IMG/VR virus record: IMGVR_UViG_3300021255_000031
DNA: 64,000 bases
Source of the DNA: a virus
Taxonomy: Duplodnaviria > Heunggongvirae > Uroviricota > Caudoviricetes
Strand: one strand, 5' to 3'
In this document: positions 1 to 13,147 of the stretch, piece by piece
How positions within the stretch are numbered: the stretch's first letter is position 1
Layout: every line of letters starts with the position of its first letter
The notes under the pieces: generated by a model
What the model was told of the DNA's origin: nothing
The model's database searches: none
The model's input: the letters and a program-made list of their open reading frames with translations, nothing else
Translations under genes and position numbers: made by a program

Positions 1-363
1 AAGATAAAATGCCATATCTTTTTCAAAATTTTTTTCAAAGTCAGCAAGTGCATTGAAATTACATTGATGCGGTGCATTATTATATCGAAAAGCTAAACGA
101 TGCCGCCATGCTTCTTTATCGTGCGCGGGTACGAATACTTCAAAAGGGATATGTAAATCTCTTAACGCATTGATAACACATTGATGCGCCGAAATAAATA
201 CGGCTTTATTTGTGGTTAGCTCTAACTTGTGCGCGACTGCTATATAATTATATTCCCATCTATCAACTTTGGGAAAGTTAGAACTATCTAAATCAATAGT
301 TGTGTCGGGATGCGCTTTGCAATAAGTGGATTTTCCGCAACCTTGATAACCGCAATAAATCAT
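1..363 (-). CDS. P-loop NTPase/kinase-like protein (C-terminal part runs off window start)
   Basis: Translation from ATG at 363 gives MIYCGYQGCGKST... (Walker A GxxGxGKST); AAAGGAG SD 7 nt upstream; consensus promoter 392-419. Confidence 0.6.
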   Translation of the reverse strand, partial: MIYCGYQGCGKSTYCKAHPDTTIDLDSSNFPKVDRWEYNYIAVAHKLELTTNKAVFISAHQCVINALRDLHIPFEVFVPAHDKEAWRHRLAFRYNNAPHQCNFNALADFEKNFEKDMAFYL

Positions 364-391: not shown

Positions 392-460
392 ATTATATCA
401 CAATAATTGCGATTGTCAAGTTAAAAGTGAGTTAAGACTAAACTGGATGTTAAACATCCA
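392..460 (-). promoter_or_regulatory. promoter (-10 392-397 ext TGTGATATAAT; -35 TTGACA 414-419) + palindrome core TGGATGTTAAACATCCA 444-460
   Basis: read on minus strand; drives P-loop gene. Confidence 0.7.
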
Positions 461-473
461 ATTTCCTTTTAAG

Positions 474-496
474 AAAAAGCCCGCCGTGTGGCGGGC
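474..496 (-). terminator. intrinsic terminator (GCCCGCC-ACAC-GGCGGGC + U5 on minus strand)
   Basis: directly after stop of 503..907. Confidence 0.7.
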
Positions 497-502
497 TTGG
501 GA

Positions 503-907
503 TTACTTCAAGCGATACACATTTGCCTTGCCCTTGGCTTCGGTCTTAACAAGCCCGGTTGCCATTTCACGAAGCAAGATGTTCTGAACCTTCTGCCAAT
601 TAAAGTCGGCGGGCAGTTCGGCTTTCGCGGCGTCATACAAGTCCTTGGCGGTGATGTCGGAAGCAAGATACTTGCGGAGGACAGGAGCAACCTTGGCAAC
701 GAGGTCGGCACGTGCCGCCGCGGTGGCTGCCTTGCGCTTTTCCTTGGCTTCGGGAGAGGAAGCGCGGGTAGCGGAGAGCTGGTCGATCATACCGCCGACA
801 ACATCAAGCGCGTCCTTAATCGCGTTCTGCTGGTCATCGGTGAAGCTGGAGAGGTCACAAGCGTTGATGGTCTGGGTAACGATAGTCAGGGCGTTCTTCT
901 TAGTCAT
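503..907 (-). CDS. hypothetical early protein, family A (paralog of 5937..6269)
   Basis: 134-aa ORF with own promoter (961-989), AGAAAGG SD, terminator 474-496; shares N-terminal MTKN..L..VT and LPADF motif with 5937..6269. Confidence 0.7.
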   Translation of the reverse strand: MTKKNALTIVTQTINACDLSSFTDDQQNAIKDALDVVGGMIDQLSATRASSPEAKEKRKAATAAARADLVAKVAPVLRKYLASDITAKDLYDAAKAELPADFNWQKVQNILLREMATGLVKTEAKGKANVYRLK

Positions 908-960
908 ACTTTTCTACCTTTCTGGTTTGTAAGGGTTTTCCTTCCCTTGATTACGCTATA

Positions 961-989
961 ATTATATCACAGATTTGTGAGTTTGTCAA
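961..989 (-). promoter_or_regulatory. promoter for 503..907 (TATAAT 961-966 with TGTGA ext; TTGACA 984-989; 17-nt spacer)
   Basis: innermost of three stacked promoters. Confidence 0.7.
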
Positions 990-1007
990 GTTAAGAATTT
1001 GTTAATT

Positions 1008-1094
1008 GATGGTGGGTTATCCCTTTTCGTTCCCCTACCATCATTGCCTACGGCAATTGTGGTGCTTATTGGGAATAGGCTTCTTGCTTTCAAC
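1008..1094 (-). ncRNA. candidate about 85-nt transcript from orphan promoter
   Basis: contains perfect hairpin AUUGCC-GUA-GGCAAU (1043-1057); no ORF. Confidence 0.25.
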
Positions 1095-1100
1095 GTAATT

Positions 1101-1129
1101 ATTATATCACGGATTTGGGATTTTGTCAA
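1101..1129 (-). promoter_or_regulatory. orphan consensus promoter (TATAAT 1101-1106; TTGACA 1124-1129), no ORF before next promoter
   Basis: TTGACA-N17-TGATATAAT on minus strand. Confidence 0.6.
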
Positions 1130-1130
1130 G

Positions 1131-1297
1131 TGTTTTCTTCGTTAAGTTCTTGAGAGAGTTTTGACGCTATGCGCAACTTGCATCTTAATTCCTCGTGCGT
1201 TCCGCTCTTACGAGTGCCGAAGCAGTACCGTCTATTGCTACTTCCAACCGTAGCCCCACACGCGACCAGTGGCTCAGAGGTTTTCTCCCTCAAGAAC
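1131..1297 (-). ncRNA. candidate about 165-nt structured transcript from orphan promoter (no ORF)
   Basis: 5-prime GUUCUUGAGGGAG pairs with 3-prime CUCUCUCAAGAAC; internal UUCG tetraloop hairpin; bounded by promoters at 1304-1332 and 1101-1129. Confidence 0.3.
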
Positions 1298-1303
1298 AAT
1301 ATC

Positions 1304-1383
1304 ATTATACCATCATACCCATAATATGTCAAGTTAAGAATTTGTTAAGCTGGACTGGGAAACTTGGATGTTTAACATCCAAA
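1304..1383 (-). promoter_or_regulatory. orphan promoter (TGGTATAAT 1304-1309; TTGACA 1327-1332) + palindrome 1365-1383
   Basis: no ORF in the about 170 nt downstream. Confidence 0.6.
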
Positions 1384-1398
1384 TTCCCGTAGGGGAAG

Positions 1399-1419
1399 GC
1401 GGGACGCTGGGCGTCCCGC
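1399..1419 (-). terminator. GC hairpin GCGGGACGC-CCA-GCGUCCCGC after 1426..2967 (no clean U-run)
   Basis: perfect 9-bp stem. Confidence 0.45.
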
Positions 1420-1425
1420 TTCGGT

Positions 1426-2967
1426 TTAGGAGAACATGATATGGAAAGCTTTTGTGATATTTTCAATTAACTTTTCGGTGTATTGACTGGTTACGATAAC
1501 CTTTGCTTTAGTGAATTGATAATCATTACGCATATACTGTTTATTATCGACATCGGTAATAAGGCAAGTATGGGGCTGGTCTATCTGTTTGAATAGCTCA
1601 CTGCAAGTTTCTACACTGCCGGAATTATCACTTAAAGCGTCACCATCAAACAGGAAGATATTATAATTATAACTGTCCTTTTTTTGAAGATTGTTGAAAA
1701 TCTCGGTTAGGTTTTTTGGCAAGTCGTTTCCACCAGTACAATGCATTTGTCGCTCTTTAACACTTTGGCAAGTTACAAAATCATAATTGATAAATGAAAC
1801 ACTCAAAGAGAAATTGGGATTTTTTCTCTCGACTTCGGACAAGAAAGCCAGTAAAGCATTTACAATACCTTCATTATTCCTAAAGCTGCCCGAACGGTCA
1901 AGGAACAAATTCAAACGGCAAGTTCCATATTTTGTGTTACCATTTGTCACGGCTGAACGCTCAAAGTATTTATAATCATCACGCACCACGGCGCGGGGAT
2001 TAAATACGCCGCTATAAGCATTAAAGCCAGAGCCGTTTGAGTTCTTTTTATTGAAATTAGAAATAAGTCGTTCAATAATATTTTCCGCGCCCGCCAACTG
2101 TTGCTTAGCGTTATCGTTAAGCATTTTATCAGCAGAAAGGGCTTGCTTTGCTATTTCGCGGACAATTGCGCGACCAAGGGCTTCACAAGTTGTATTTTCT
2201 TCACCACTTTCGACTTCTTCGGCTTCGCCTTCACTGGCTTCGGCTTCTTCTGTCTTTTCGGCTTCATCATTCTTTATAACATCATCAAAGCCTGTCGTAG
2301 CGGTTTTTTTATCGGCCTTGTCGCCTTTTTCGCCTTCGCCGCTTTTACTCTGCGGTGGGGTTTCTACCTTGCAAGCGTCGGGGTCACCCGCGATTTTCTT
2401 AAATAAAGTCCTTATATCGCTGACATAATTCCAAATTTTTTCATAATCAGTTAAGGCGCTAATATTATTATATTTGTTAATTATTCTTTTTACTTCTTCA
2501 ATATATCCTGCTTTACCATAGCGAAAACGCACAATATTGAAAAAGCGTTGAATGGGGTCAGTCGCGGCGGGGTCAAGCTGGCAAATATTACGGAGCTGCT
2601 GTTTGAAGTCAGTATCAAGGTAATAATCGCTAAGAAGGGTTTCAATGCGCTCATCTTCAAAGATATTGAAAGCAGTGCGCTGTTGCTCATTGTGTGCCAT
2701 TCTAAGTAAATCATTGGGGGTCAAAATAACGTGGCTGATTTCGTGATAGAGCATAGAACGAACAGCCGTTTCCGTATAGCTTTCATCCATTACCGCTTCC
2801 AGCCCTTTGGCAATAATAGGGTAGGAAATAACAATCTTGTTTTCCATAGGCGAATAATAGCTGGTGGGCGCTTCCGTATCAAGAGAAACAGGAACTTGCT
2901 TCCCGCAGTAGTAGCCGATGGGTAGGGTTTTCAAGATTGCGTCAATGGTGTTGATACTTACGAACAT
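1426..2967 (-). CDS. VWA-domain protein with HExxH metallopeptidase-like N-terminal domain (DUF2201-like), partner of MoxR ATPase
   Basis: HEISH motif; C-terminal MIDAS-like DRSGS..GGND..FDGDA; GAAGGGAGAA SD; promoter 2998-3026. Confidence 0.7.
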   Translation of the reverse strand: MFVSINTIDAILKTLPIGYYCGKQVPVSLDTEAPTSYYSPMENKIVISYPIIAKGLEAVMDESYTETAVRSMLYHEISHVILTPNDLLRMAHNEQQRTAFNIFEDERIETLLSDYYLDTDFKQQLRNICQLDPAATDPIQRFFNIVRFRYGKAGYIEEVKRIINKYNNISALTDYEKIWNYVSDIRTLFKKIAGDPDACKVETPPQSKSGEGEKGDKADKKTATTGFDDVIKNDEAEKTEEAEASEGEAEEVESGEENTTCEALGRAIVREIAKQALSADKMLNDNAKQQLAGAENIIERLISNFNKKNSNGSGFNAYSGVFNPRAVVRDDYKYFERSAVTNGNTKYGTCRLNLFLDRSGSFRNNEGIVNALLAFLSEVERKNPNFSLSVSFINYDFVTCQSVKERQMHCTGGNDLPKNLTEIFNNLQKKDSYNYNIFLFDGDALSDNSGSVETCSELFKQIDQPHTCLITDVDNKQYMRNDYQFTKAKVIVTSQYTEKLIENITKAFHIMFS

Positions 2968-2997
2968 TATTTTGTTCTCCCTTCATTTGATGATATA

Positions 2998-3078
2998 ATT
3001 ATAGCACCATACCCCTATATTGTCAAGTTAAGATTGTGTAAAGTTCGGCAGACGGGTATTTGGATGTTTAACATCCAA
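2998..3078 (-). promoter_or_regulatory. promoter (TATAAT 2998-3003; TTGACA 3021-3026) + palindrome 3060-3078
   Basis: drives VWA gene. Confidence 0.7.
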
Positions 3079-3090
3079 ATTCCATTTGTT

Positions 3091-3118
3091 AAAAAAATGT
3101 TGCGGGTTTAACCCGCAA
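3091..3118 (-). terminator. intrinsic terminator GUUGCGGGUUAAACCCGCAAC + U7
   Basis: overlaps stop of MoxR gene; palindrome starts 12 nt later. Confidence 0.75.
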
Positions 3119-4106
3119 CAAATTCACCAGTGATTGCGCCCGCAAGCTGTTCTGCGCTAAGCACAAACTCACGAATATCTTCGCACCTATCGACAAGCGG
3201 CTCGGGCAAGCCATAAGTTACACCGCCGAGGGTCAAGTTCATAGTACCGATGATTTCAAAACCATCATTGATATGGACTTCACGGTTTTTGTAGAAGAAG
3301 GACTTTTTGCCATCTACAATGCCCTGCAAGAAACGGAGACTATCAAAGGGAAGAAGGTTGATTTCATCAAGCACAATGGGCTTTCCCTGTTCCATACATT
3401 CCCAAAGCATAGAGGGGTTGAAGTCGGGCTTGCCGTCCTTGAAAATGAAGTTTTCCATCAAGTCGGCGGGAAGCATAGAAGAATTACATACGATACAGCG
3501 GTTATCCGTTTCGGACTGCGCGAGAGTGGTCTTGCCAGTGCCAGCAGAGCCATAATAAACCTTGAAGCGGTTATTGATTACCTGCGAAGGCGCGCCGTAT
3601 TCCTTAATCTTTTTGAGAAGTTCGGAAAATTCCTTACTACGAATTTTCTGCTCTACATCATTAGCAAAGGAAGAACCCGTCAGCGCGAAGTAATGGTTGA
3701 TATAGTTCTTTGCTTCGGTTTGGCTTTTTACTGCCTTTTGCGCGAGGGTGTTAGTGAAACGGAAGGAGGGCACGAAGTCAAACTCTGTAAAGAATTTCAG
3801 CAGTTCGCCCAGCCCTTCCAGCAGCTGCGCCTTTTTATCTACAGGAAGTTCTGCGGCGGCTTCCACTACATCGGCTACAGCTTCGACCTGTTCAGCAGTC
3901 AGCCAGCTCGGAAAGGTAATACGGCCATCAGCAATAGCATCTACTCTATTAAGAGTAGGGATGCAACGGCAAGTATTATACAGATTGACAGCTTCGTTAT
4001 ACTCGGGCGCGTAGGATGGAACGACAGTAACTTTGCCCTTATACTGAATAACGATAGGAGAACCCTTGCAAGAGCGAGAAATTGACAGGTCAGAAGATAC
4101 GAACAT
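3108..4106 (-). CDS. MoxR-like AAA+ ATPase
   Basis: Walker A GSAGTGKTT, Walker B IVLDEIN; 332 aa; promoter 4156-4184; terminator 3091-3118. Confidence 0.75.
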   Translation of the reverse strand: MFVSSDLSISRSCKGSPIVIQYKGKVTVVPSYAPEYNEAVNLYNTCRCIPTLNRVDAIADGRITFPSWLTAEQVEAVADVVEAAAELPVDKKAQLLEGLGELLKFFTEFDFVPSFRFTNTLAQKAVKSQTEAKNYINHYFALTGSSFANDVEQKIRSKEFSELLKKIKEYGAPSQVINNRFKVYYGSAGTGKTTLAQSETDNRCIVCNSSMLPADLMENFIFKDGKPDFNPSMLWECMEQGKPIVLDEINLLPFDSLRFLQGIVDGKKSFFYKNREVHINDGFEIIGTMNLTLGGVTYGLPEPLVDRCEDIREFVLSAEQLAGAITGEFVAG

Positions 4107-4155
4107 AGCGTTGCCTTTCTGGTTTGTTGTTGTTTTCCTTCAACTTTGTGATTAG

Positions 4156-4184
4156 ATTATATCATAAGGTGGGAAGTTTGTCAA
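4156..4184 (-). promoter_or_regulatory. promoter for MoxR gene (TGATATAAT 4156-4161; TTGACA 4179-4184)
   Basis: 17-nt spacer. Confidence 0.7.
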
Positions 4185-4242
4185 GTTAAGATTTTGTTAT
4201 CTTGGTTTCTTTCCTTGCTTCCGTCCCTCAATCAACAATAAC

Positions 4243-4322
4243 ATTATACCATGTAGGGGCATATATGTCAAGTTAAGATTGCGTTAAGTGGCGGAGAAGG
4301 AAGTTGGATGTTTAACATCCAA
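4243..4322 (-). promoter_or_regulatory. orphan promoter (TGGTATAAT 4243-4248; TTGACA 4266-4271) + palindrome 4304-4322
   Basis: about 50-nt transcribed spacer before next promoter. Confidence 0.6.
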
Positions 4323-4340
4323 ACTATGAAAAGGGGAGGA

Positions 4341-4673
4341 TTACTCCTCCTCCTCCTCTGCTTCGGCGATTGCTGCAATGCTGTTGAATAGGTCAAAGAT
4401 GTCATAGGTCTGCTGGTGTTCTGTTCTCTCACCCAACAGATAGTCTATCATCTCTTCGGGCGGAAGCGCCGTTACATCACCTTCATCCCATTCAAAGCCA
4501 TAGCTCTCTACATAGCCTTCGTTATTGTGATAGCTGCCGCTATGACAGATAATATCCCCAAGAGGAAAGGCAGGGAAGCGCCACTGATAGCCGTCGAAGC
4601 AAGGGGCTACGGTGTATTTGATGCCTGCTTCGTCAAGGAGATGATTAAAGTAATCACGAGTATCTTCAAACAT
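4341..4673 (-). CDS. hypothetical acidic protein (C-terminal EAEEEEE)
   Basis: 110-aa ORF, promoter 4725-4753, hairpin 4334-4350 at 3-prime end. Confidence 0.6.
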   Translation of the reverse strand: MFEDTRDYFNHLLDEAGIKYTVAPCFDGYQWRFPAFPLGDIICHSGSYHNNEGYVESYGFEWDEGDVTALPPEEMIDYLLGERTEHQQTYDIFDLFNSIAAIAEAEEEEE

Positions 4674-4724
4674 TTTTTTTGTTCCTCTCTGGTTTGTTTG
4701 TGTTTTCCTTCACTTGATGGTATA

Positions 4725-4753
4725 ATTATAACACATAAGTGGCTGTGTGTCAA
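4725..4753 (-). promoter_or_regulatory. promoter for 4341..4673 (TGTTATAAT 4725-4730; TTGACA 4748-4753), no palindrome
   Basis: 17-nt spacer. Confidence 0.65.
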
Positions 4754-4754
4754 G

Positions 4755-5033
4755 TTAAAACTGTGTAAAACCCAATTCGTAGAAAAAGTCTTGATCTACT
4801 CCATCGGGAATGCTACAATATAATTCATAAAATTCTTTATACTTCTTTTTAGTTTCTTCTTCATTTCGAGATTCAAAGTATAATTCTAAACCGAAATCAT
4901 CATAACCCCAAGCACTTAGACGAGTATAATATAAACCATTATAAAAGTTTAGATTTAATATAAGTTTAATTTGATGATTTGGATAACAGGGACACCAATT
5001 ATCTGTAACCTTTATCATTCGTTCAATAGTCAT
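4755..5033 (-). CDS. hypothetical protein
   Basis: 92 aa; SD AAAGGAGAA; promoter+palindrome 5064-5134. Confidence 0.6.
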   Translation of the reverse strand: MTIERMIKVTDNWCPCYPNHQIKLILNLNFYNGLYYTRLSAWGYDDFGLELYFESRNEEETKKKYKEFYELYCSIPDGVDQDFFYELGFTQF

Positions 5034-5063
5034 AATGTTAGTTCTCCTTTACTTTGTATATGT

Positions 5064-5134
5064 ATTATAACATCTTATACCATAAATGTCAAGTTAAGAT
5101 TTGATGAAGTGGTTATTGGATGTTAAACATCCAA
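5064..5134 (-). promoter_or_regulatory. promoter (TATAAT 5064-5069; TTGACA 5087-5092) + palindrome variant TTGGATGTTAAACATCCAA 5116-5134
   Basis: drives 4755..5033. Confidence 0.7.
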
Positions 5135-5140
5135 ATTTCT

Positions 5141-5160
5141 AAAAGGGCGATTACTCGCCC
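5141..5160 (-). terminator. terminator hairpin GGGCGA-GUAA-UCGCCC + U-run
   Basis: after 5151..5567. Confidence 0.6.
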
Positions 5161-5567
5161 TCCTGTTCGTGTATCATTCTGTCAAGTCCCTTTTTGTTAA
5201 GTTCCTTGATAGTTTTCTTCGCTTCGCGCTTGGCTTCACGCGCCTTGGCTGCTGCTTCCTTTTTCGCGGCGCTGGCTTCTTTCTTTGCTTGGGTTCTTTC
5301 GCAATCAAGTTTGTAATCTTCCGCGGCGGCGTAACCGTCATAATCGTCATAGCCGCCTTTGCCGTTACGAGTGCCACGAGGAATAGTAACTTTGATTAAC
5401 ACAAATTTATCATTCCCATCGGCATCTACTACAGGGATAGCAATTTCGCTGGCGCTTACTACGCAAATTTGCTTGTCAATGTCAAGGTCGTAATGTGCGG
5501 AGAGGGCTTCTTTAACGACTTGAAGTGCTTCAACGCGGAGGGCATTTTCCAAACTGGCTTTACTCAT
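5151..5567 (-). CDS. hypothetical protein with Lys/Ala/Glu-rich C-terminal tail
   Basis: 138 aa; promoter 5598-5625; terminator 5145-5160. Confidence 0.6.
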   Translation of the reverse strand: MSKASLENALRVEALQVVKEALSAHYDLDIDKQICVVSASEIAIPVVDADGNDKFVLIKVTIPRGTRNGKGGYDDYDGYAAAEDYKLDCERTQAKKEASAAKKEAAAKAREAKREAKKTIKELNKKGLDRMIHEQEGE

Positions 5568-5597
5568 ATCTTTGACTTCCTTTCTTTTGATAGTTCT

Positions 5598-5625
5598 ATT
5601 ATATCACAAATTTGAAAAATGTCAA
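5598..5625 (-). promoter_or_regulatory. promoter for 5151..5567 (TGTGATATAAT 5598-5603; TTGACA 5620-5625; 16-nt spacer)
   Basis: no palindrome. Confidence 0.6.
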
Positions 5626-5789
5626 GACTTTTTTATCTTTTCCTTTGTTAAAATTCCGTAAATTTGGAGGGCGAATGTTATAAGAAATATTACCTTAAAT
5701 TTTGTTTCTTCTGTAAAAGCCCAAAGTAAAAATGAAATAAAGCATACCAAAGCAAGCGCATGAAAAATCCCCCAAAGTATTTTTGCCAT
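5622..5789 (-). CDS. small membrane protein (2 predicted TM helices)
   Basis: Start moved to MAKILWG after AAAGGGGAAAAG SD; hydrophobic segments; promoter+palindrome 5822-5897. Confidence 0.55.
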   Translation of the reverse strand: MAKILWGIFHALALVCFISFLLWAFTEETKFKVIFLITFALQIYGILTKEKIKKS

Positions 5790-5821
5790 AACCGACTTTT
5801 CCCCTTTCATTTGATGTATAA

Positions 5822-5897
5822 ATTATACCAAAGTCGGTTTGTTTTGTCAAGTTAAGTTTCTGTTAAGTGAGATGGAATTTGGATGTTTAACATCCAA
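5822..5897 (-). promoter_or_regulatory. promoter (TGGTATAAT 5822-5827; TTGACA 5845-5850) + palindrome 5879-5897
   Basis: drives small membrane protein gene. Confidence 0.7.
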
Positions 5898-5905
5898 TTT
5901 TTGAT

Positions 5906-5931
5906 AAAAGGAAAGGGGACTTGCGTCCCCT
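5906..5931 (-). terminator. terminator hairpin AGGGGAC-GCAA-GUCCCCU + U-rich
   Basis: after 5937..6269. Confidence 0.6.
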
Positions 5932-5936
5932 TGTGC

Positions 5937-6269
5937 TTACGCCTTGGTGTACTGGTTCGGGCCCTTGGCGTTTTCAATCTTATTGACTTCGGAAGCCCAC
6001 ATTGCGCGGAGGGCGTACTGAAGCTTGGACTTGGTGAAGTCGGCGGGCAGACCCGTGCAAGCATCGAAAATCTCGGCAACGGTGCGCGGCGTGTCGTCAA
6101 TGACTGCCATTACAATGTCATGCGACTTGTCGTACAGCTCGCGGTTAGCGTTAGCCTTTTCTACATTCTTAGCCTGCTCCGCCACAAGCTCGGCGGTCGC
6201 ATCAGCCAGTTCGGGAATGTCGTGCGCGGTCAGGTAGGTTACAAGGGCGTTCAGAGTGTTCTTAGTCAT
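5937..6269 (-). CDS. hypothetical early protein, family A (paralog of 503..907)
   Basis: 110 aa; AGAAAGG leader; promoter 6320-6348; terminator 5914-5931. Confidence 0.65.
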   Translation of the reverse strand: MTKNTLNALVTYLTAHDIPELADATAELVAEQAKNVEKANANRELYDKSHDIVMAVIDDTPRTVAEIFDACTGLPADFTKSKLQYALRAMWASEVNKIENAKGPNQYTKA

Positions 6270-6319
6270 ATCAGTTGCCTTTCTGGTGTTAGGGATTTTC
6301 CTTTCCCTTTTGTGATTAT

Positions 6320-6348
6320 ATTATAGCACAGTTTGTGCGCTATGTCAA
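6320..6348 (-). promoter_or_regulatory. promoter for 5937..6269 (TGCTATAAT 6320-6325; TTGACA 6343-6348)
   Basis: 17-nt spacer. Confidence 0.65.
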
Positions 6349-6431
6349 GTTAAGAGTTTGTTATGTTGAGAGAGAATCATAAGAAATGTACGGCCGATTC
6401 TCATTTCACCCTATCCCCTCTCAACAATAAT

Positions 6432-6521
6432 AGTATATCATAGATTCGGGATTTTGTCAATAGTTTAGAGTGTTAAGATTCGGTTAAGTGCGCAGAATGA
6501 AATTGGATGTTTAACATCCAA
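6432..6521 (-). promoter_or_regulatory. orphan promoter (TGATATACT 6432-6437; TTGACA 6455-6460) + palindrome 6503-6521
   Basis: transcript 6361-6430 has self-complementary ends. Confidence 0.6.
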
Positions 6522-6550
6522 ACTTTTTTACGGAGACTGTTAAGTCTCCG
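6520..6550 (-). terminator. terminator hairpin CGGAGACU-UAAC-AGUCUCCG + U-run
   Basis: after 6540..7292. Confidence 0.65.
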
Positions 6551-7292
6551 TAAAGCGGTAGTTATCTTTATATATCGTTTTCTTTACATATTCTCCCTCA
6601 TGTATTACAATTCCATTAATACTTATCTGATAGGGGTGGGCGACAGGACGCGGAAGTATCTTAACAACTTTGTAATCTTTGCCCCATTCAAGTCCCATTT
6701 TGACACATTCTTGTAATATATGCGCTTCAATGTCTGCATCAAATACACCCATGTGCTGTTCCACAAAAGCAGGAGACTTAGTTAAAAATTGATAAACAGT
6801 CTCGGCATTACCACTATAATTGCCACTTTCAGTAAAGCGCATATTTGCTTCACAGAAGTCTTGATAGTCTTTTTGGCAAGTGATAACCTCGGACGCATAG
6901 CCCCATATATCATGTATTGCTACTGTATCAAAGGGGTTTTGTGTTTTGAACCAATCGCAATTATAGGCAAAAACTTTTTCGTCAAAGTCACTATTATAAG
7001 CATAAGCGTCAGTAATTTCATACCGTTTAATATCGCGTATCATTTCTTGCATAACATAGCCCCACTTTTCAAGTATTGCTTTGCGTGAGCGCATAAGCGG
7101 GATATAAAGCGGGCGCTTATCAACATAATATGCTGTTTGAAATAGGGGTAGGTTATGCCAAACTTGCTCGATGATAAAATGCTTTCGTTCTATTACTATT
7201 CCGCTATCATTTTCAAAAATAAGATAGCCAACATCATAGCAAAAGCACTTGGAGAGGTCGGTCGTTTCAGTATCAAATACCAACGAATACAT
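6540..7292 (-). CDS. DEDD-family 3-prime-5-prime exonuclease (DnaQ-like)
   Basis: FDTETTD Exo I motif near N-terminus, later H..D motifs; co-transcribed with 7345..7593 from promoter 7625-7653. Confidence 0.65.
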   Translation of the reverse strand: MYSLVFDTETTDLSKCFCYDVGYLIFENDSGIVIERKHFIIEQVWHNLPLFQTAYYVDKRPLYIPLMRSRKAILEKWGYVMQEMIRDIKRYEITDAYAYNSDFDEKVFAYNCDWFKTQNPFDTVAIHDIWGYASEVITCQKDYQDFCEANMRFTESGNYSGNAETVYQFLTKSPAFVEQHMGVFDADIEAHILQECVKMGLEWGKDYKVVKILPRPVAHPYQISINGIVIHEGEYVKKTIYKDNYRFTET

Positions 7293-7344
7293 AATAGTCC
7301 TTTCTGGTTTTAGAAGTTGTCCTTCTTCTTTAGTATGATTTTAT

Positions 7345-7593
7345 TTATTCATCATCAATTATTATATCTTTTTGCGGCAAAAGATAAAATTTTGGCATTT
7401 CTTCCTTGCTGTTTGCGGTGGTTTGATTTTTATCATAACCACGATAAATTATATTTTTATGCGCTTCTATCCAAGCTTCTGCCTTTTCTTTAGTAGTAAA
7501 GTACTTAAACATAGATATAAATCCACTTCCATTATAATCATACCAATAGTCATATAATTCTACCTGAAGAACATATACCGTTATTTTCATCAT
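7345..7593 (-). CDS. hypothetical protein
   Basis: 82 aa; first gene of a 2-gene unit; promoter+palindrome 7625-7705. Confidence 0.55.
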   Translation of the reverse strand: MMKITVYVLQVELYDYWYDYNGSGFISMFKYFTTKEKAEAWIEAHKNIIYRGYDKNQTTANSKEEMPKFYLLPQKDIIIDDE

Positions 7594-7624
7594 TATTTTA
7601 TTCTCCTTTGCTTTTGGTAATTTT

Positions 7625-7705
7625 ATTATATCATTAGTGGGGTACTATGTCAAGTTAAGATTGTATAAAGTACAGAAGAATGTGATTTGGATGTTTAACA
7701 TCCAA
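7625..7705 (-). promoter_or_regulatory. promoter (TGATATAAT 7625-7630; TTGACA 7648-7653) + palindrome 7687-7705
   Basis: drives 7345..7593 and 6540..7292. Confidence 0.7.
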
Positions 7706-7721
7706 AATATATATGGACGCT

Positions 7722-8450
7722 TTAAGCGTCCACCAGTTTGAAATCATAGCCGCCGAGAGCAAAGAAGGAGTTCCAACCTGCGTCTGTAGAACACAAATTA
7801 CACAAATCAAAATAGGTTTTTTCATCTACATAGAACCATTCTTTTGCTCTTTGTGCCCTTGAACAAGCGAGGGAAGCAAGGATATTATGCGCGATTGTTT
7901 CACATTCTGCTACACTATAAGTGCCAGTGTTATCGCCCGGACAGACACATTTAGAACAGAATAGCATAGGATTGTAAGAAGCATATTGATTTACTCGCCG
8001 CTCACAATCTTCGGAAGCGCCAATCTTTACGAGATAGTAGGTTTGTTTCGTAAGGGGGTTAATACCTACCATTCCGATAAAATATAATCCTACATTATCG
8101 GTTATTTCTTTATAACTGGAATTGTTTTCAAATGTAGCGCAAGGCATTTCAAGCACAGGTAGGGTATCAATAAGTGATGGTGTATAATAATCATCATCAC
8201 CGTGAATAATGAGGTGTTCATCTATTGTACAATGATTAGCATACCACTGCTGGCGCAGATAAGGAGTAAGGAGCGGGAATAAGGTGTGAAGGCGAAAATC
8301 TTCTAACGAAAGTGACATTAATGAAAGCTTTGGATTACCATCGCACCATTCTTCATCCGACTTTACGAGTTCTGCCATCTCTTTTTCAAGTGCTGGGCGG
8401 TTGTTATCAATGATTTTCATAATAGTTTGGCGATACTTCTTCATATTCAA
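7722..8450 (-). CDS. T5orf172/GIY-YIG-superfamily domain protein
   Basis: GLYFIGMVGINP...YLVKIGASEDCERRVNQY matches T5orf172-type pattern (Y..KIG.S.d..R..qy); AGAAAGG leader; promoter+palindrome 8493-8571. Confidence 0.55.
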   Translation of the reverse strand: MNMKKYRQTIMKIIDNNRPALEKEMAELVKSDEEWCDGNPKLSLMSLSLEDFRLHTLFPLLTPYLRQQWYANHCTIDEHLIIHGDDDYYTPSLIDTLPVLEMPCATFENNSSYKEITDNVGLYFIGMVGINPLTKQTYYLVKIGASEDCERRVNQYASYNPMLFCSKCVCPGDNTGTYSVAECETIAHNILASLACSRAQRAKEWFYVDEKTYFDLCNLCSTDAGWNSFFALGGYDFKLVDA

Positions 8451-8492
8451 AGCCTTTCTGGTTTATAGGGTTTCCTTCCCTTTGATGTTTTT

Positions 8493-8571
8493 ATTATACT
8501 ATAAAGGGGGTAAATTGTCAAGTTAAAATAGTGTAAAATGATATATAATAAATTGGATGTTTAACATCTAA
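8493..8571 (-). promoter_or_regulatory. promoter (TATAAT 8493-8498; TTGACA 8516-8521) + palindrome variant TTGGATGTTTAACATCTAA 8553-8571
   Basis: drives T5orf172 gene. Confidence 0.7.
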
Positions 8572-8596
8572 AATATCAAAGTGCCCTTACGGGCAC
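8571..8596 (-). terminator. terminator hairpin GUGCCC-GUAA-GGGCAC + UUUGAUAUUUU
   Basis: after HAD gene. Confidence 0.65.
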
Positions 8597-9033
8597 AAGT
8601 CCTTCAAAACTTGAAGAATTTTTTCGGGTTTGTAGGAAGTTCCCAACCAATTAATTCTGTTCTTTTGTTCATCATCAAACAGTATATCATCGGGAGAAGT
8701 CATAAACGATTCCTTTGGCGTACCGTGCGCGACAATGTAAATATCATCCCATACTACACTTGAAAGGTGGCGTTGAAGCCAGCTTATTTTGGCGCGGGTA
8801 ACAGCTCTGTCGTAGTCCTCGCGCGGCTCTTTGCTTAGCCAGCTTATCACGGCAATGCGCCAGCCGCCAGCTTGCACCTTATTAAGATAGCGTGCCAGCA
8901 GGCTCATATTTATCATCGTGCGCGCTTCGATATAGGGGGATGGGTCAAAAGCACGCAACTTGGCGAGCCAGTCGGGAACGCTATACAAATCCGCTATTGT
9001 ACCGTCAAGGTCAAAGAAGATTGTCTTACTCAT
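8587..9033 (-). CDS. HAD-superfamily hydrolase, 5-prime(3-prime)-deoxyribonucleotidase-like
   Basis: FFDLDGTIADL motif I; start at MSKT after GAAGGGAGAA SD; terminator 8581-8596. Confidence 0.6.
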   Translation of the reverse strand: MSKTIFFDLDGTIADLYSVPDWLAKLRAFDPSPYIEARTMINMSLLARYLNKVQAGGWRIAVISWLSKEPREDYDRAVTRAKISWLQRHLSSVVWDDIYIVAHGTPKESFMTSPDDILFDDEQKNRINWLGTSYKPEKILQVLKDLCP

Positions 9034-9062
9034 ATTATGTTCTCCCTTCATTTGATACTGTA

Positions 9063-9141
9063 ATTATATCATAGAGGGGTTGAATTGTCAAGTTAAATTT
9101 ATGTTAAGAGGAAAATAGAAAATTGGATGTTTAACATCCAA
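9063..9141 (-). promoter_or_regulatory. promoter (TGATATAAT 9063-9068; TTGACA 9086-9091) + palindrome 9123-9141
   Basis: drives HAD gene. Confidence 0.7.
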
Positions 9142-9150
9142 ATTCTCCAT

Positions 9151-9180
9151 AAAAAAGAAGAGGGGTTACTTCCCCTCTTC
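9151..9180 (-). terminator. terminator hairpin GAAGAGGGG-AGUAA-CCCCUCUUC + U6
   Basis: after SPFH gene. Confidence 0.65.
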
Positions 9181-10143
9181 TCCCAACAGACTACCTACAT
9201 CCATCAGCGACATTGTTTCACTACCATATACCACTGGCATCTTGCCATCCCACTGAAGGATACGGTAATAATCAAGGAGGTCAGCAGACAGCCATTCCGC
9301 AATAGCCTTATTCTTGGCGGCTTCCTTCAAGCCTGCATACTCGGCGGCGTCCGCCTGAATTTTCGTAACTTCAAGGTCTGCTTCGGCGGCAATCTTTGCC
9401 TTCTCTGCTTCGGCATTAGCGTTAATTACATCACGCTTTGCCTTAGCTTCGGCTTCCATAGTTAGACGCTCCTGTTCGGTCTGTGCTCTCAACTTCTCCT
9501 GCGTTGCTACCTGCTTTGCTTCTACTGCTTGTGTAAATGCGTCGGTAAAATCAATATCTTCAATAGAGATAGAGATTACATTGATACCAGATTTAGACAG
9601 GTCAGCGCGCAGTACGGCACCGATATTTTCTGACAGAGCAGAACGATTTTCAATCAGTCCTTCGGCGGTATAGTCTCCAAATGTGCTCTTAACTGCTTCC
9701 TGCGTGCGGGGCACAATAAGGATAGTTTCATAATTAACGCCTACTGTTTTATATAGATTCATAGCCTTAGCGCTATCAATACAGTAATTTACGCTACCCT
9801 TGACCTGTACTTCCTGCAAATCAGCACTAAAAGCAAGCAATTCAAAGTGATAACGCTGTTCGCGGTTATCCATTTCTACTACATTGATAAACGGCGAGTG
9901 CCAGTTAAGGCCGCTTTCCATAGTGTAGTCCTGCACCTGCCCGAACTTTACAGGAATACCAGTATGCCCTGTTCTTACCTGTGTGCCGCACGCGAGCAGG
10001 ATGAAAATGGTGGCGAGAATGACAGCTCCAATACGCAAGCCAATTCGTGCGCCCTTGATGGGCTTGCTATCATAATCCCTGATAAAGCCCGTTCCAACGA
10101 AGCCAATGAGAAGTACAACGATTGCGCCAATTACTCCAAACAT
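9166..10143 (-). CDS. SPFH/band-7 (prohibitin/stomatin-like) membrane protein
   Basis: N-terminal TM helix, SPFH-like core, C-terminal Ala/Glu/Lys coiled coil; true start MFGV after GAAAAGGAGAAAG (listed ORF N-extension translates the -10 box). Confidence 0.7.
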   Translation of the reverse strand: MFGVIGAIVVLLIGFVGTGFIRDYDSKPIKGARIGLRIGAVILATIFILLACGTQVRTGHTGIPVKFGQVQDYTMESGLNWHSPFINVVEMDNREQRYHFELLAFSADLQEVQVKGSVNYCIDSAKAMNLYKTVGVNYETILIVPRTQEAVKSTFGDYTAEGLIENRSALSENIGAVLRADLSKSGINVISISIEDIDFTDAFTQAVEAKQVATQEKLRAQTEQERLTMEAEAKAKRDVINANAEAEKAKIAAEADLEVTKIQADAAEYAGLKEAAKNKAIAEWLSADLLDYYRILQWDGKMPVVYGSETMSLMDVGSLLGEEGK

Positions 10144-10189
10144 TTTTCTTTCTCCTTTTCTATGAGGTTTTCCCTCACTTGATGTATAA

Positions 10190-10268
10190 ATTATATCACA
10201 CGGGGTATGATATGTCAAGTTAAGAATGCGTTAAGTGCAATGGATATATTTGGATGTTTAACATCCAA
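10190..10268 (-). promoter_or_regulatory. promoter (TGTGATATAAT 10190-10195; TTGACA 10213-10218) + palindrome 10250-10268
   Basis: drives SPFH gene. Confidence 0.7.
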
Positions 10269-10269
10269 A

Positions 10270-10296
10270 TTTATAAAGGGGCGGTTAGTCCGCCCA
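10270..10296 (-). terminator. terminator hairpin GGGCGG-ACUAA-CCGCCC + CUUUAUAAAUUU
   Basis: after 10285..10653; abuts palindrome. Confidence 0.6.
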
Positions 10297-10653
10297 ATCA
10301 AATTCAATCCTGATGTATTTACTGTTGTGGCCTAAACTAAATGTTACTTTGTATCCTGCGGCAGAAAATAAGTTCGTAATTAACTGCCGTCCTTCATTTT
10401 TTATCCAAGCCCAACCATATTTTTCTCTGATATTGCAAGCATTATTTTCGTCATAACCAATATTTATATGACATTTAGTTTCTCCACGTCCAGCTGCTAC
10501 TTTAATGCATTCCCATGGAATAGTTTTAATACATTCAAGAATTGCATCTACATCTTTTTTCATCTCAGTCTCTTCGTGCGCTCTAACCATTTCTTTTGCT
10601 TCGGCTGCGGTGATGGCATCGGGAATGTGGATAACATTGATTTCAAAGTTCAT
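10285..10653 (-). CDS. hypothetical protein
   Basis: start MNFEIN after AGAAAGG SD; promoter+palindrome 10700-10771; terminator 10278-10296. Confidence 0.6.
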   Translation of the reverse strand: MNFEINVIHIPDAITAAEAKEMVRAHEETEMKKDVDAILECIKTIPWECIKVAAGRGETKCHINIGYDENNACNIREKYGWAWIKNEGRQLITNLFSAAGYKVTFSLGHNSKYIRIEFDWAD

Positions 10654-10699
10654 TTCTATGTCCTTTCTGGTTTGGTGTTTCCCTTCACTTGATGTATAA

Positions 10700-10771
10700 A
10701 TTATATCATACAGAGGGTGGATTGTCAAGTTAATTTTTTGTTATGTGAAAATTTGGATGTTTAACATCCAA
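10700..10771 (-). promoter_or_regulatory. promoter (TGATATAAT 10700-10705; TTGACA 10723-10728) + palindrome 10753-10771
   Basis: drives 10285..10653. Confidence 0.7.
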
Positions 10772-10779
10772 ATTATGAA

Positions 10780-10798
10780 TTGGCGCGATTAGCGCCAA
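10780..10798 (-). terminator. hairpin UUGGCGC-UAAUC-GCGCCAA
   Basis: after 10789..11142. Confidence 0.5.
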
Positions 10799-11142
10799 AT
10801 TGTCTTTCCAGCTTTGATAAACTTAATTTGATTTCTATCTACTTTCTTCCGTAAGTAACTTGGAATACGATTTACTCCCTTGTAACATTGTACCAGCTCA
10901 CGGAAGGTTGTAACATACATAGTAATTATCTTTTGTTTCAGCTCGTCCTTGATGATGGTGATGCCAGTATCTGTAATACAGATATATACACCAGCTTGCC
11001 CCGCAAGTGCTTTTTCGTGTCCGCGGCGATAAACTTCCTTAACGACCTGCCCTAAGCCAATATCGTTAATAATGTGTTGAACGCGGTCGGCGCGATAGAC
11101 CTCAACATGGTGGGTTAATTCAGCGTTAAGTAGTTGCTTCAT
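10789..11142 (-). CDS. hypothetical protein
   Basis: 117 aa; promoter+palindrome 11175-11255; terminator 10780-10798. Confidence 0.6.
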   Translation of the reverse strand: MKQLLNAELTHHVEVYRADRVQHIINDIGLGQVVKEVYRRGHEKALAGQAGVYICITDTGITIIKDELKQKIITMYVTTFRELVQCYKGVNRIPSYLRKKVDRNQIKFIKAGKTIWR

Positions 11143-11174
11143 TGTTTTTTCTCTCCTTTCTTTTTTACAATTAA

Positions 11175-11255
11175 ATTATAGCATAAGAGGGGACAAAAGT
11201 CAAGTTAATTGTTTGTTAAGTTGGAGAGAGGAAAGTTTGGATGTTTAACATCCAA
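11175..11255 (-). promoter_or_regulatory. promoter (TGCTATAAT 11175-11180; TTGACT 11198-11203) + palindrome 11237-11255
   Basis: drives 10789..11142. Confidence 0.65.
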
Positions 11256-11262
11256 ATCATAT

Positions 11263-11282
11263 AAGGACGATCATTCGTCCTT
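11263..11282 (-). terminator. hairpin AAGGACGA-AUGA-UCGUCCUU overlapping stop of 51-aa ORF
   Basis: perfect 8-bp stem. Confidence 0.5.
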
Positions 11283-11426
11283 AACCTCGATAAATCTTTC
11301 ATCATCTTCAATTTCTATGATTTTACGATATAGTGATTCGGCGAGGTTTGTATCTGTAATTATTTCGTTAATTTTTTCATGAATGACTTTACGGAGTTCA
11401 AGTAAAGTGATTTGCAATGTCATCAT
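11271..11426 (-). CDS. small hypothetical protein (51 aa)
   Basis: Not in ORF table (<60 aa); own promoter+palindrome 11453-11543, GGGAGAG SD, terminator hairpin 11263-11282. Confidence 0.5.
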   Translation of the reverse strand: MMTLQITLLELRKVIHEKINEIITDTNLAESLYRKIIEIEDDERFIEVKDE

Positions 11427-11452
11427 TTTTCTCTCCCTTCTTTGATAATGCC

Positions 11453-11543
11453 ATTATATCATAGTTTCGGGAGTTTGTCAATATATTTTTATGTTAAATA
11501 AAAGTTAAATCATTTAAAATGAAATTGGATGTTTAACATCCAA
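11453..11543 (-). promoter_or_regulatory. promoter (TGATATAAT 11453-11458; TTGACA 11476-11481) + palindrome 11525-11543
   Basis: drives 51-aa ORF. Confidence 0.65.
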
Positions 11544-11552
11544 ATTCCTAAA

Positions 11553-11572
11553 ACGACTGCGTTAGCAGTCGT
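11553..11572 (-). terminator. hairpin ACGACUGC-UAAC-GCAGUCGU + U-rich
   Basis: after 11562..11819. Confidence 0.55.
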
Positions 11573-11819
11573 AGTCATAGCCGCCCTCGTATGGATTGAA
11601 GCCCGTTTCATCAACATCATCTTCAATGTCGTAGCTACAGCTGTTCTCATATTCTTCCCAGCTCTCATAGTAGGCACCAAAGTCAGAGCACTCTTCCAGC
11701 GGGTCGCTGATGTGGCACAGCCCATCCTTATCACAGTAGGGGCAGGTCATGTCAGCAATAGGGCAGAACACGTTCAGGCCGTTGCGAGTGCCATCGGTTT
11801 CAAAATCTTTCTTACTCAT
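11562..11819 (-). CDS. small Cys-rich acidic protein
   Basis: start MSKKDF after AAAGGAAG SD; 8+ Cys incl CPYCDKDGLCH; promoter+palindrome 11850-11931. Confidence 0.6.
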   Translation of the reverse strand: MSKKDFETDGTRNGLNVFCPIADMTCPYCDKDGLCHISDPLEECSDFGAYYESWEEYENSCSYDIEDDVDETGFNPYEGGYDYDC

Positions 11820-11849
11820 AATGATTACTTCCTTTCTTTTGATGGTATA

Positions 11850-11931
11850 ATTATAACACGAAACGCTCATAAAGTCAAGTTAAGTTTATGTTAAAAGCGC
11901 CAGAAGTAGAAGTTGGATGTCTAACATCCAA
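11850..11931 (-). promoter_or_regulatory. promoter (TGTTATAAT 11850-11855; TTGACT 11873-11878) + palindrome variant TTGGATGTCTAACATCCAA 11913-11931
   Basis: drives Cys-rich gene. Confidence 0.65.
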
Positions 11932-11958
11932 AATATATAAGCTGGTTTACGCCAGCTT
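11931..11958 (-). terminator. hairpin AAGCUGG-CGUAAA-CCAGCUU + AUAUAUUUU
   Basis: after 11947..12216. Confidence 0.55.
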
Positions 11959-12216
11959 GCGAATTTCTCCGGTTTTGATGTTCATTTGCGTGCGGTTAAT
12001 GTAGCACTGCTTTGCGTCATAGTAGCTTAGCCCCAGCTCACGCATGAACCAGCTGATATGTTTAATGGTCGTGCGGCTATACAGACCATAGCAGGTTAGC
12101 CAGCCTTTACTATCGATGCTAATTACTTTGGTGTGGTAGCTAATCAATTTGGTGATGCTGCTGTCGGTGATGATGCACGCCTGCGCGTATTTGTGGCCGT
12201 TCAATTTCCTTATCAT
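11947..12216 (-). CDS. hypothetical protein, family B (paralog of 13601..13918)
   Basis: start MIRKLNG after GGAGGG SD; shared LISYxT..I.ID..G.LTC.G.YS.TT.KHI...Q.NI.TGE core. Confidence 0.65.
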   Translation of the reverse strand: MIRKLNGHKYAQACIITDSSITKLISYHTKVISIDSKGWLTCYGLYSRTTIKHISWFMRELGLSYYDAKQCYINRTQMNIKTGEIRKLA

Positions 12217-12265
12217 TGTTATGCCCTCCAAAATTGTTTTATTTCGTTCCCTCAAGAACAATTAT

Positions 12266-12356
12266 ATTATACTACATATAGGGCAATATGTCAATAGTTT
12301 TTTGTGTTAAGAGTGCATTAAATCGGCCGAGTGATTTTTGGATGTTTAACATCCAA
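12266..12356 (-). promoter_or_regulatory. promoter (TATAAT 12266-12271; TTGACA 12289-12294) + palindrome 12338-12356
   Basis: leader begins GUUCUUGAGGGAAC (same motif as orphan RNA at 1285-1297). Confidence 0.65.
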
Positions 12357-12375
12357 CTTTTTTTAAAGGACGGTG

Positions 12376-12612
12376 TTAATCGTCCAAAAGAGTCGGCTCA
12401 ATTATCCAACGGCCTTTGTTAGTGATATAGACATGCAAGCCGTTATCCTGTTCTATATAATCCAGCTTGGTTTCTTCATAATCCTCTATCCAGCATTCAA
12501 TTTGATTACGAGCTTTATCGAAGCTGGTAAAAGCACCCCAAACGCCGCCGTAAAGGTTGGTAGCTTGGGGAGTGAGCCCCTTGAAGGTAACGATGTAAAT
12601 TAGCTGTGTCAT
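12376..12612 (-). CDS. hypothetical protein
   Basis: 78 aa; promoter+palindrome 12644-12715. Confidence 0.6.
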   Translation of the reverse strand: MTQLIYIVTFKGLTPQATNLYGGVWGAFTSFDKARNQIECWIEDYEETKLDYIEQDNGLHVYITNKGRWIIEPTLLDD

Positions 12613-12643
12613 GTTTTTTTACTTCCTTTCCTTTGATGTTTGT

Positions 12644-12715
12644 ATTATAACATAGAGCACGCAAAATGTCAAGTTAAGTTTGCGTAAATATAAAAGTTGG
12701 ATGTTTAACATCCAA
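12644..12715 (-). promoter_or_regulatory. promoter (TGTTATAAT 12644-12649; TTGACA 12667-12672) + palindrome 12697-12715
   Basis: drives 12376..12612. Confidence 0.7.
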
Positions 12716-12732
12716 TAAAAGGTAGAGGAGGT

Positions 12733-12930: not shown

Positions 12931-12962
12931 ATTTGTTATCTCCTTTCCTTGATTACATATAT

Positions 12963-13042: not shown

Positions 13043-13051
13043 CTTTTTTAT

Positions 13052-13146: not shown

Positions 13147-13147
13147 T

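Follow-up and report, generated by a model that had tools for sequence, protein, structure and literature searches.

A divergent phage AAA+ ATPase and zincin-like VWA adaptor pair, related to the phage cobS/cobT genes and set in a block of host-type promoters

The window analysed here is the whole 64,000-nucleotide stretch of the IMG/VR virus record IMGVR_UViG_3300021255_000031 (Duplodnaviria; Heunggongvirae; Uroviricota; Caudoviricetes), and its subject is a pair of adjacent genes on the minus strand. A first-pass annotation, made from the letters alone, had described them as a MoxR-type AAA+ ATPase beside a 513-amino-acid (aa) protein with an N-terminal HExxH domain and a C-terminal VWA domain carrying a MIDAS (the adhesion site that depends on a metal ion). 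Both open reading frames (ORFs) are present where it placed them. The reading that is moderately favoured here is that of a phage two-component AAA+ motor and adaptor of the CobS/CobT, NorQ/NorD, MoxR-VWA class, which would be expressed from host-type early promoters, would engage through a finger-in-pore contact, and would clamp a client protein. The two genes are as follows:

3108..4106, minus strand: AAA+ ATPase gene, 332 aa (the motor), with an AAA_5 core and Walker A and Walker B motifs
1426..2967, minus strand: adaptor gene, 513 aa, with a zincin-like N-domain, a linker, a shaft, and a VWA domain

The ATPase begins with a variable β/α N-terminus (residues 1-70) and a disordered stretch (72-87). 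A strongly conserved helical domain (91-170) with the motif FFTEFxFxPSFRFTNT precedes the AAA_5 core (181-314). The core contains Walker A (186-194, GSAGTGKTT), the Walker B residues D247 and E248 (VLDEIN), N290 as sensor-1, and R307 in the arginine finger role, all of which are invariant across 26 ATPase homologues. In the structure model, a hairpin (269-278) occupies the presensor-1 (PS1) position, and a conserved insert modelled at low confidence (about 209-230) occupies the H2 position. Strand β5 is followed by a single helix (318-326), the protein stops 25 residues past R307, and all 26 homologues terminate at the same point. For these reasons the ATPase is without the C-terminal α-helical lid that bears sensor 2 in its class, which is an architectural novelty of this branch. 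The Pfam lid model CbbQ_C has no match in it, whereas the pelagiphage homologue has one.

With Pfam, the ATPase reaches 29.1 bits for AAA_5 (cut-off 22) but only 14.5 bits for AAA_3, the MoxR proper (cut-off 27). The MoxR label therefore stands in its broad sense and falls in its narrow one, for which the lid is also lacking; judged by sequence, the protein is an AAA_5 ATPase of the MoxR class broadly taken, and not a MoxR proper. The profile of the ATPase family matches Midasin AAA modules in the PDB, and the structural matches of the pair comprise NorQ, CbbQ, and the VWA domain of NorD. A 270-aa antisense ORF (3273-4085, plus strand) lies within the ATPase gene. Six related loci have long antisense ORFs of 358-408 aa at this position, and a naive ORF caller selected them over the ATPase gene. 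The antisense ORF is most likely a stop-poor antisense frame and no gene.

Residues 1-193 of the adaptor form a zincin-like domain in the predicted structure, consisting of a helix, a three-stranded sheet (27-48), and seven further helices. The helix at 62-82 carries H75, E76, and H79 of the HExxH motif, and a Glu-rich helix at 94-111 (NxxEDERIE) carries E104, E106, and E109. The model thus has the gluzincin or M48-like layout of a sheet, an HExxH helix, and a later helix with a Glu as candidate third ligand. Conservation was assessed in two sets, 43 distinct relatives with identities as low as 27% and 73 proteins that each represent a 50% cluster. H75, E76, H79, N101, E104, D105, R107, and E109 are invariant in both sets, and E106 is kept in 40 of the 43 relatives. 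Loss of the HExxH histidines in homologues, which would have spoken against the first-pass description, is thus not seen in either set. The domain is putatively zinc-protease-like, and would probably cleave peptide bonds.

The zincin-like domain is followed by an acidic disordered linker (203-261) and two helices (266-276 and 285-309). The shaft, or finger (311-345; NFNKKN…YSGVFNPR…DYKYFER), comprises 35 residues including a short helix, stands directly before the VWA domain, and is highly conserved despite a low predicted local distance difference test (pLDDT) score. Residues 350-513 adopt a Rossmann-like VWA fold in the predicted structure, with a MIDAS composed of D357-x-S359-G-S361, N414, and D441. 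D357, S359, S361, D441, and G442 are invariant in both sets, and G360 is invariant in the 43 relatives and nearly so in the 73 representatives. The fourth MIDAS position is N414 in 37 of the 43 relatives and T or S in the others. In both alignment sets, conservation is highest in the shaft, the HExxH block, and the MIDAS. The fold and the invariant residues bear out the earlier description of an HExxH and VWA/MIDAS protein.

Profile searches with the adaptor give little. Pfam, NCBIfam, and PADLOC yield no significant match, and its PHROG matches are weak and partial. No VWA model in Pfam matches it, so that the profile searches uphold the ATPase (AAA_5) and leave the VWA assignment unsupported at this level, from which it is rescued by structure. 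DUF4344, a putative metallopeptidase family, reaches E 0.024 for the 513-aa protein and matches 12 of 73 members, the best at E 1.2e-6. The DUF2201 or peptidase-like profile that had been suggested does not hold: DUF2201_N reaches E 0.039 in one of 24 adaptor members, and DUF2201 is without a match. In the PDB, neither sequence nor profile searches return anything meaningful, as CobT (9uka_G) is matched only via the low-complexity acidic linker, at E 0.071.

Of 50 related loci, 43 have the ATPase gene next to the adaptor gene, with both on one strand. Four of the seven exceptions have the gene at a contig edge, and the other three (L044, L046, and L047) have no ATPase within 10 kb by tblastn. 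The order is ATPase then adaptor in large phages of 150-190 kb, as here, and adaptor then ATPase in a clade of ~55-kb phages. Because the adjacency is conserved, and in both gene orders, it supports the two genes as a functional pair, as first proposed. Neighbour clustering over 49 loci, with a third partner in view, gives no gene common to both clades besides the pair. Two of the loci without an ATPase, the IMG/VR megaphage contigs L046 (394 kb) and L047 (332 kb), have ORFs of ~600 aa at ~10001-11780, in which the tblastn alignment covers only the N-terminal zincin part (residues 1-195 and 1-170). Two genes downstream of these ORFs there is a clamp-loader-like AAA+ gene, the AAA_5 ATPase is not found within 10 kb, and the ATPase partner may have been lost or moved.

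Each protein has >1000 clusters at 90% identity, which excludes chance ORFs. With the adaptor profile, the 50% identity clusters number 724 under an E<=1e-3 threshold and 477 under E<=1e-30. Family members are full-length and persist, in differing neighbourhoods, in phages whose sizes run from ~25 kb to 467 kb. Relatives occur in only 5 of 185,579 species genomes, and these five are all contigs in bins of Clostridia metagenome-assembled genomes. The family is therefore essentially confined to phages, and its hosts are probably anaerobic Clostridia. Both window proteins are ~93% identical to those on a 167-kb IMG/VR contig. Nucleotide and tblastn searches of 50,697 phage records give no match for the region or the adaptor, and tblastn with the ATPase gives only distant AAA_5 matches, in Gordonia, Microbacterium, and Pelagibacter phages. 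Both window proteins start with MFVS, as the first reading had pointed out (2956-2967, ATGTTCGTAAGT, and 4095-4106, ATGTTCGTATCT, minus strand). This start is common only to the closest relatives (P0003, P0005, and P0006; P0121) and is possibly due to chance. A duplicated start cassette was rejected, as the upstream leader DNA differs between the two genes.

The closest known counterparts, which the first-pass annotation overlooked, are a phage gene pair and the architecture of CobT. A MoxR and metallopeptidase-vWA pair was described in T4-like phages by Iyer et al. 2021 (PMC7824862). Liu et al. 2021 identify the same widespread two-gene cluster as cobST, with a cobT "mistakenly annotated as a peptidase", and call cobST part of the core genome of T4-like cyanophages (PMC8651126). 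Phage members of the pair have no assigned function (PMC9983427). In the Pelagibacter phage Mosig, genes 18 and 20 encode a cobS-type AAA protein and a putative peptidase, adjacent and on the same strand as in the window. The Mosig ATPase core is homologous to that of the window (hhalign 95.7%, window 186-307 against 142-275 of the 411 Mosig residues), and the Mosig peptidase is homologous to the adaptor (hhalign 93% over HExxHxxxTP … NxxEDxRI[ED]). An acidic linker and a DxSGS MIDAS are common to the two adaptors, neither of which is recognised by Pfam.

The two pairs also differ. The Mosig ATPase runs 136 residues further and ends in a Pfam CbbQ_C lid, whereas the window ATPase is lidless and has the N-terminal helical domain. 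The Mosig protein matches CobS (E 5e-21) and NorQ directly in the PDB, while the window ATPase profile reaches no CobS. The adaptor has 513 aa in the window and 769 aa in Mosig, and the distance between the pairs is beyond tblastn detection. Unlike in Mosig, each window gene has its own early-type promoter and terminator. A Foldseek search of BFVD with the adaptor gives as its two best matches close uncultured-phage relatives named 'Cobalamin biosynthesis protein'. Further matches include many phage VWFA proteins, among them the cyanophage S-TIM5 "Metallopeptidase" and N4-like proteins.

Phage N4 has a comparable pair in gp24 (AAA ATPase) and gp25 (DUF2201_N and DUF2201), in which an HExxH motif followed by a VWA/MIDAS lies beside an ATPase gene, as in the window. 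The N4 genes sit among early and middle DNA-metabolism genes, and proteins of the COG3864 type ('predicted metal-dependent peptidase') are grouped here. In contrast to the window adaptor, gp25 is without a long acidic linker and differs in the motif after HExxH (HELWHVxxLH…NYACD), and the C-terminal region of gp24 is normal where the window ATPase is lidless. Alignments A1 and A4 against A3 (gp25) give hhalign probabilities of 3-10%, over a short stretch only, with the MIDAS strand and a GGN/GGT motif. Membership of the adaptor in DUF2201 was rejected, since hhalign against the N4 gp25/DUF2201 family is not significant. PDB sequence searches detect no solved relative of N4 gp25 or of the Mosig peptidase. 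On these sequence comparisons, the window pair is a very divergent and unannotated branch of the known phage cobS/cobT (MoxR and peptidase-vWA) pairs.

The cryo-electron microscopy (cryo-EM) structure of Brucella CobSTN allows the adaptor to be compared with a bona fide CobT. CobT has an M48C-like N-domain (a helix, a three-stranded sheet, and eight helices), a disordered linker of ~90 residues, the helices alpha0'-alpha0, and a shaft of ~40 residues that enters the pore of the CobS hexamer and terminates in a short helix before the VWA domain (10.64898/2026.07.21.739949). The CobT MIDAS has Asn at its fourth position, and CobN is clamped between the CobT N- and C-domains (10.64898/2026.07.21.739949). 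The window adaptor has this architecture element by element, as a comparison of the model layout with the published description and not as a superposition. The motor is also CobS-like in being of the AAA_5 type, with putative H2-insert and PS1 hairpins in the model. In contrast, the CobS lid binds the CobT N-domain and the window ATPase has no lid. The HExxH motif is invariant in the window family, whereas the CobT paper reports no metal site.

A true cobaltochelatase CobS/CobT that hijacks a host CobN-type subunit and so raises cobalamin synthesis would fit this architecture, the 'porphyrin biosynthesis' label of PHROG 249 (ATPase core, E 1.9e-13), and the 'Cobalamin biosynthesis protein' names of the two best BFVD matches, and a CobN hijack has been proposed for viral cobST (PMC8651126). 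The window pair itself gives many reasons to doubt such a role. Pfam CobT, CobT_C, and CobS_N and the NCBIfam CobS and CobT models give no match at E<=1. The ATPase profile finds no CobS in the PDB, and the adaptor reaches CobT via its linker only. The small subdomain to which the CobT N-domain binds is absent from the ATPase, and the invariant HExxH/Glu site plays no part in chelatase models. Cobaltochelatase has CobN as its partner, and no CobN-like ORF was noticed among the scanned ORFs of the window. The likely hosts are anaerobic Clostridia, which use an anaerobic B12 route independent of CobNST, and the ribonucleotide reductase of the phage is the B12-independent class III NrdD/NrdG. The chelatase role is accordingly very unlikely, and the least likely of the roles considered.

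The best mechanistic model for the window pair is provided by NorQ/NorD and CbbQ/CbbO, with a finger-in-pore contact and a twist-and-stretch movement. The finger-in-pore contact was proposed as general for AAA+/VWA pairs from cryo-EM of NorQD (PMC13036017). The NorD and CbbO adaptors differ from that of the window in having no peptidase motif, their clients (nitric oxide reductase and Rubisco) are encoded nearby, and their motors have lids. The analogy with NorQD, CbbQO, and CoxDE also suggests another function, in which the pair is a metallo-cofactor insertion or activase chaperone for a nucleotide-metabolism enzyme of the phage or host, with HExxH as a metal-handling site. All characterised non-eukaryotic relatives of the class are metal-insertion or enzyme-activase systems, and the N4 and Mosig pairs lie beside MazG, dUTPase, dCTP deaminase, 5'-nucleotidase, or deoxynucleoside monophosphate kinase genes. 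Genes from this set also adjoin a related AAA_5 ATPase in Pumpernickel, Sixama, and GMA2, the neighbours of which have no recognised VWA domain, and a 5'-nucleotidase-like gene is present in the same early block of the window. No specific client is conserved beside the pair, however, timing alone may account for the grouping with early and middle genes, and an HExxH motif with a general-base Glu is a hydrolytic signature. A cofactor chaperone is therefore rather unlikely, though less so than a chelatase.

The control elements around the two genes are as follows:

2998..3031, minus strand: adaptor promoter, TTAACTTGACA-N17-TATAAT, a 12/12 match with a TG-extended -10, followed by the ribosome-binding site (RBS) GAAGGGAGA
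3060..3078, no strand: 19-bp palindrome TTGGATGTTTAACATCCAA between the ATPase terminator and the adaptor promoter, a probable operator
3098..3120, minus strand: intrinsic-terminator-like hairpin of 10 bp followed by T7, overlapping the ATPase stop codon
4156..4276, minus strand: tandem pair of consensus promoters upstream of the ATPase gene, at 4156-4189 and 4243-4276
4304..4322, no strand: copy of the palindrome upstream of the ATPase promoters and after the terminator hairpin of the upstream gene (4335-4353)

The promoters of the pair are perfect σ70-type sequences (TTGACA-N17-TATAAT), one for the adaptor gene and two for the ATPase gene. Since the hairpin lies at the ATPase stop codon, the two genes are separate transcription units. 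The 64-kb window contains 26 perfect σ70-type promoters, all on the minus strand, and 27 palindromes, all of them within 443-17103, where chance would give ~1 promoter and 0 palindromes in the whole window. The small genes of this region each form their own unit, composed of a hairpin terminator, the palindrome TTGGATGTTTAACATCCAA, a CTTAACTTGACA-N17-TATAAT promoter that is mostly TG-extended, and an RBS. The palindrome is probably an operator controlling the whole early block. It is also found in the related contigs L008 (25 copies), L011 (15), and L016 (6).

The promoter type points to early expression of the pair from host-type promoters, by analogy with phages that use the host sigma for early genes, and this agrees with the early-region setting first proposed. 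A strand-biased excess of promoters near the pair recurs in related 150-190-kb phages and not in the 55-kb clade. A sigma-factor-like gene (phrog_5767, E 2.5e-15; 18732-20036, plus strand) heads the plus-strand structural module, a position that suggests late transcription under a phage sigma factor, with the host-type promoters serving the early block.

The promoter setting bears on a role in virion assembly, as chaperone and maturation peptidase, which has been proposed for the MoxR and metallopeptidase-vWA pair of T4-like jumbo phages (PMC7824862), with tail development shown in the archaeal virus ATV. In the ~55-kb clade the pair lies between large terminase and head-morphogenesis genes and an SNF2 helicase gene, and the extreme 4142-aa tape-measure protein of the window might require help. 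The early promoter block on the strand opposite the structural genes argues against such a role in this phage. Here and in the 150-190-kb relatives the pair is part of a multi-promoter early block, and in the window it is 13 kb from the structural module. In five isolated phages, moreover, the pair or its AAA_5 ATPase adjoins nucleotide-metabolism genes and not structural ones. An assembly role is hence unlikely for the window pair, which is in line with the first-pass suggestion that the pair may not be morphogenetic.

The first-pass annotation had also connected the pair with NTP-dependent conflict systems. The MoxR-vWA conflict systems are ternary, with a VMAP, iSTAND, or FtsH component in addition to trypsin or caspase peptidases (Kaur et al. 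2020, PMC7159879). They resemble the window pair in having a MoxR-class ATPase and a vWA, some with peptidase domains. They differ in being enriched in multicellular bacteria, while the window family is essentially phage-only, and the putative peptidase of the window is a zincin fused N-terminal to the vWA, unlike in the conflict systems. A ternary VMAP, iSTAND, or FtsH system was rejected, as there is no conserved third gene and no PADLOC match, and the proposed connection was dropped.

The counter-defence function raised at the same time, in which the pair would be a weapon of counter-defence or host takeover that inactivates a specific host immune complex, is conjecture. The early block does contain many small genes of unassigned function, and a remodelling motor with a protease is suited to destroying a host complex. 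However, PADLOC gives no similarity to known defence or anti-defence proteins, and the conservation is much broader than is typical of arms-race genes. The family spans 724 clusters at 50% in phages of very different size and varied neighbourhoods, and related pairs are wide in T4-like cyanophages, as core genome (PMC8651126), and in N4-like phages, where gp25 has more than 1100 relatives. This breadth looks more like that of a housekeeping function in phages than that of an accessory gene in an arms race, and leaves an immune weapon about as unlikely as an assembly role.

The moderately favoured motor-and-adaptor reading can be put as a sequence of steps. The 332-aa ATPase would form a hexameric ring, and its H2-insert hairpins would grip the 311-345 loop of the adaptor just before the VWA domain. 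The zincin domain would dock at the periphery of the ATPase, probably on the N-terminal helical domain because the lid is absent. The target protein would be clamped with the VWA domain's MIDAS face on one side and the β-sheet and active-site cleft of the zincin domain on the other. ATP hydrolysis would then rotate the unit of VWA and shaft, stretch the acidic linker, and remodel the target. As the HExxH and the downstream Glu helix are invariant family-wide, the zincin domain would most likely cleave the target, or else handle a metal ion. The target would act before or during replication and not in virion assembly, and a host protein is the likeliest candidate.

Several points weigh against this reading. 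The adaptor N-domain binds the ATPase lid in both CobST and NorQD, and as the lid is missing here, the docking geometry is a guess. The adaptor shaft is modelled at a pLDDT below 50. The pair of the 55-kb clade adjoins the large terminase and a head-morphogenesis gene and has no nearby σ70-type promoters, so early expression may not extend to the whole family. The hhalign comparison of the 91-170 domain, taken as a permuted lid, with the lids of the Mosig, N4, and Pumpernickel ATPases was negative, at low power.

A bolder version, about as unlikely as the cofactor chaperone, would have the 91-170 bundle replace the small subdomain of the lid-less motor by a lid-first permutation, which is likened to the lid(n)-core(n+1) order of Midasin and dynein. 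The bundle would cover the nucleotide pocket and dock the zincin domain. With a live CobT-like adaptor, the pair would then be a split AAA+ protease of two polypeptides that cuts a MIDAS-clamped folded host protein without threading. If true, ATP-dependent proteolysis would have a new mode, which the phage would use in host takeover.

The phage cobS/cobT pairs, alias MoxR and peptidase-vWA or N4 gp24/gp25, are among the most widespread phage genes without a known function, and the literature readings of them conflict between vitamin B12 synthesis and a virion-assembly protease. The window adds a large, unannotated, and phage-restricted branch, some 480-720 clusters at 50% identity, with invariance of the zincin signature, the MIDAS, and the shaft predicted to enter the pore. 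For this branch a B12 role is unlikely by host and gene context, and a virion-assembly role is unlikely by promoter context. The CobT structure helps to reconcile the labels 'cobT' and 'peptidase', as CobT-type adaptors are zincin-VWA proteins and the phage versions keep an intact HExxH. The target, if found, would explain a very widespread phage function and would test whether AAA+/VWA motors drive proteolysis.

The other genes of the window fall into several groups. In the early block, a DEDD-like exonuclease (6540-7292) and the 5'-nucleotidase-like HAD protein (8587-9051) also lie close to the pair in large phages related to this one (clusters c2 and c5). The same block contains a T5orf172-domain protein (7722-8450, minus strand) and an SPFH/Band-7 protein (9166-10218, minus strand; Pfam E 8e-30), the latter in PHROG 200, which is annotated 'lipoprotein'. 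A portal gene is present in the window. The tape-measure protein (34048-46476, plus strand) matches several PHROG tape-measure families, the best at E 1e-49, and its 4142 aa imply a tail of exceptional length. Next come a Dit-like protein (46483-48063) and unannotated proteins of 1454 aa and 722 aa. The minus strand encodes the anaerobic ribonucleotide reductase, nrdD (59587-61821), together with its radical-SAM activase, nrdG (58876-59448). Just downstream of nrdG on that strand are homing-endonuclease-like genes at 57688-58674 and 56750-57685, the latter with GIY-YIG and NUMOD1, and past these are a dUTPase (55408-56211) and a RuvC-like gene (54671-55408).

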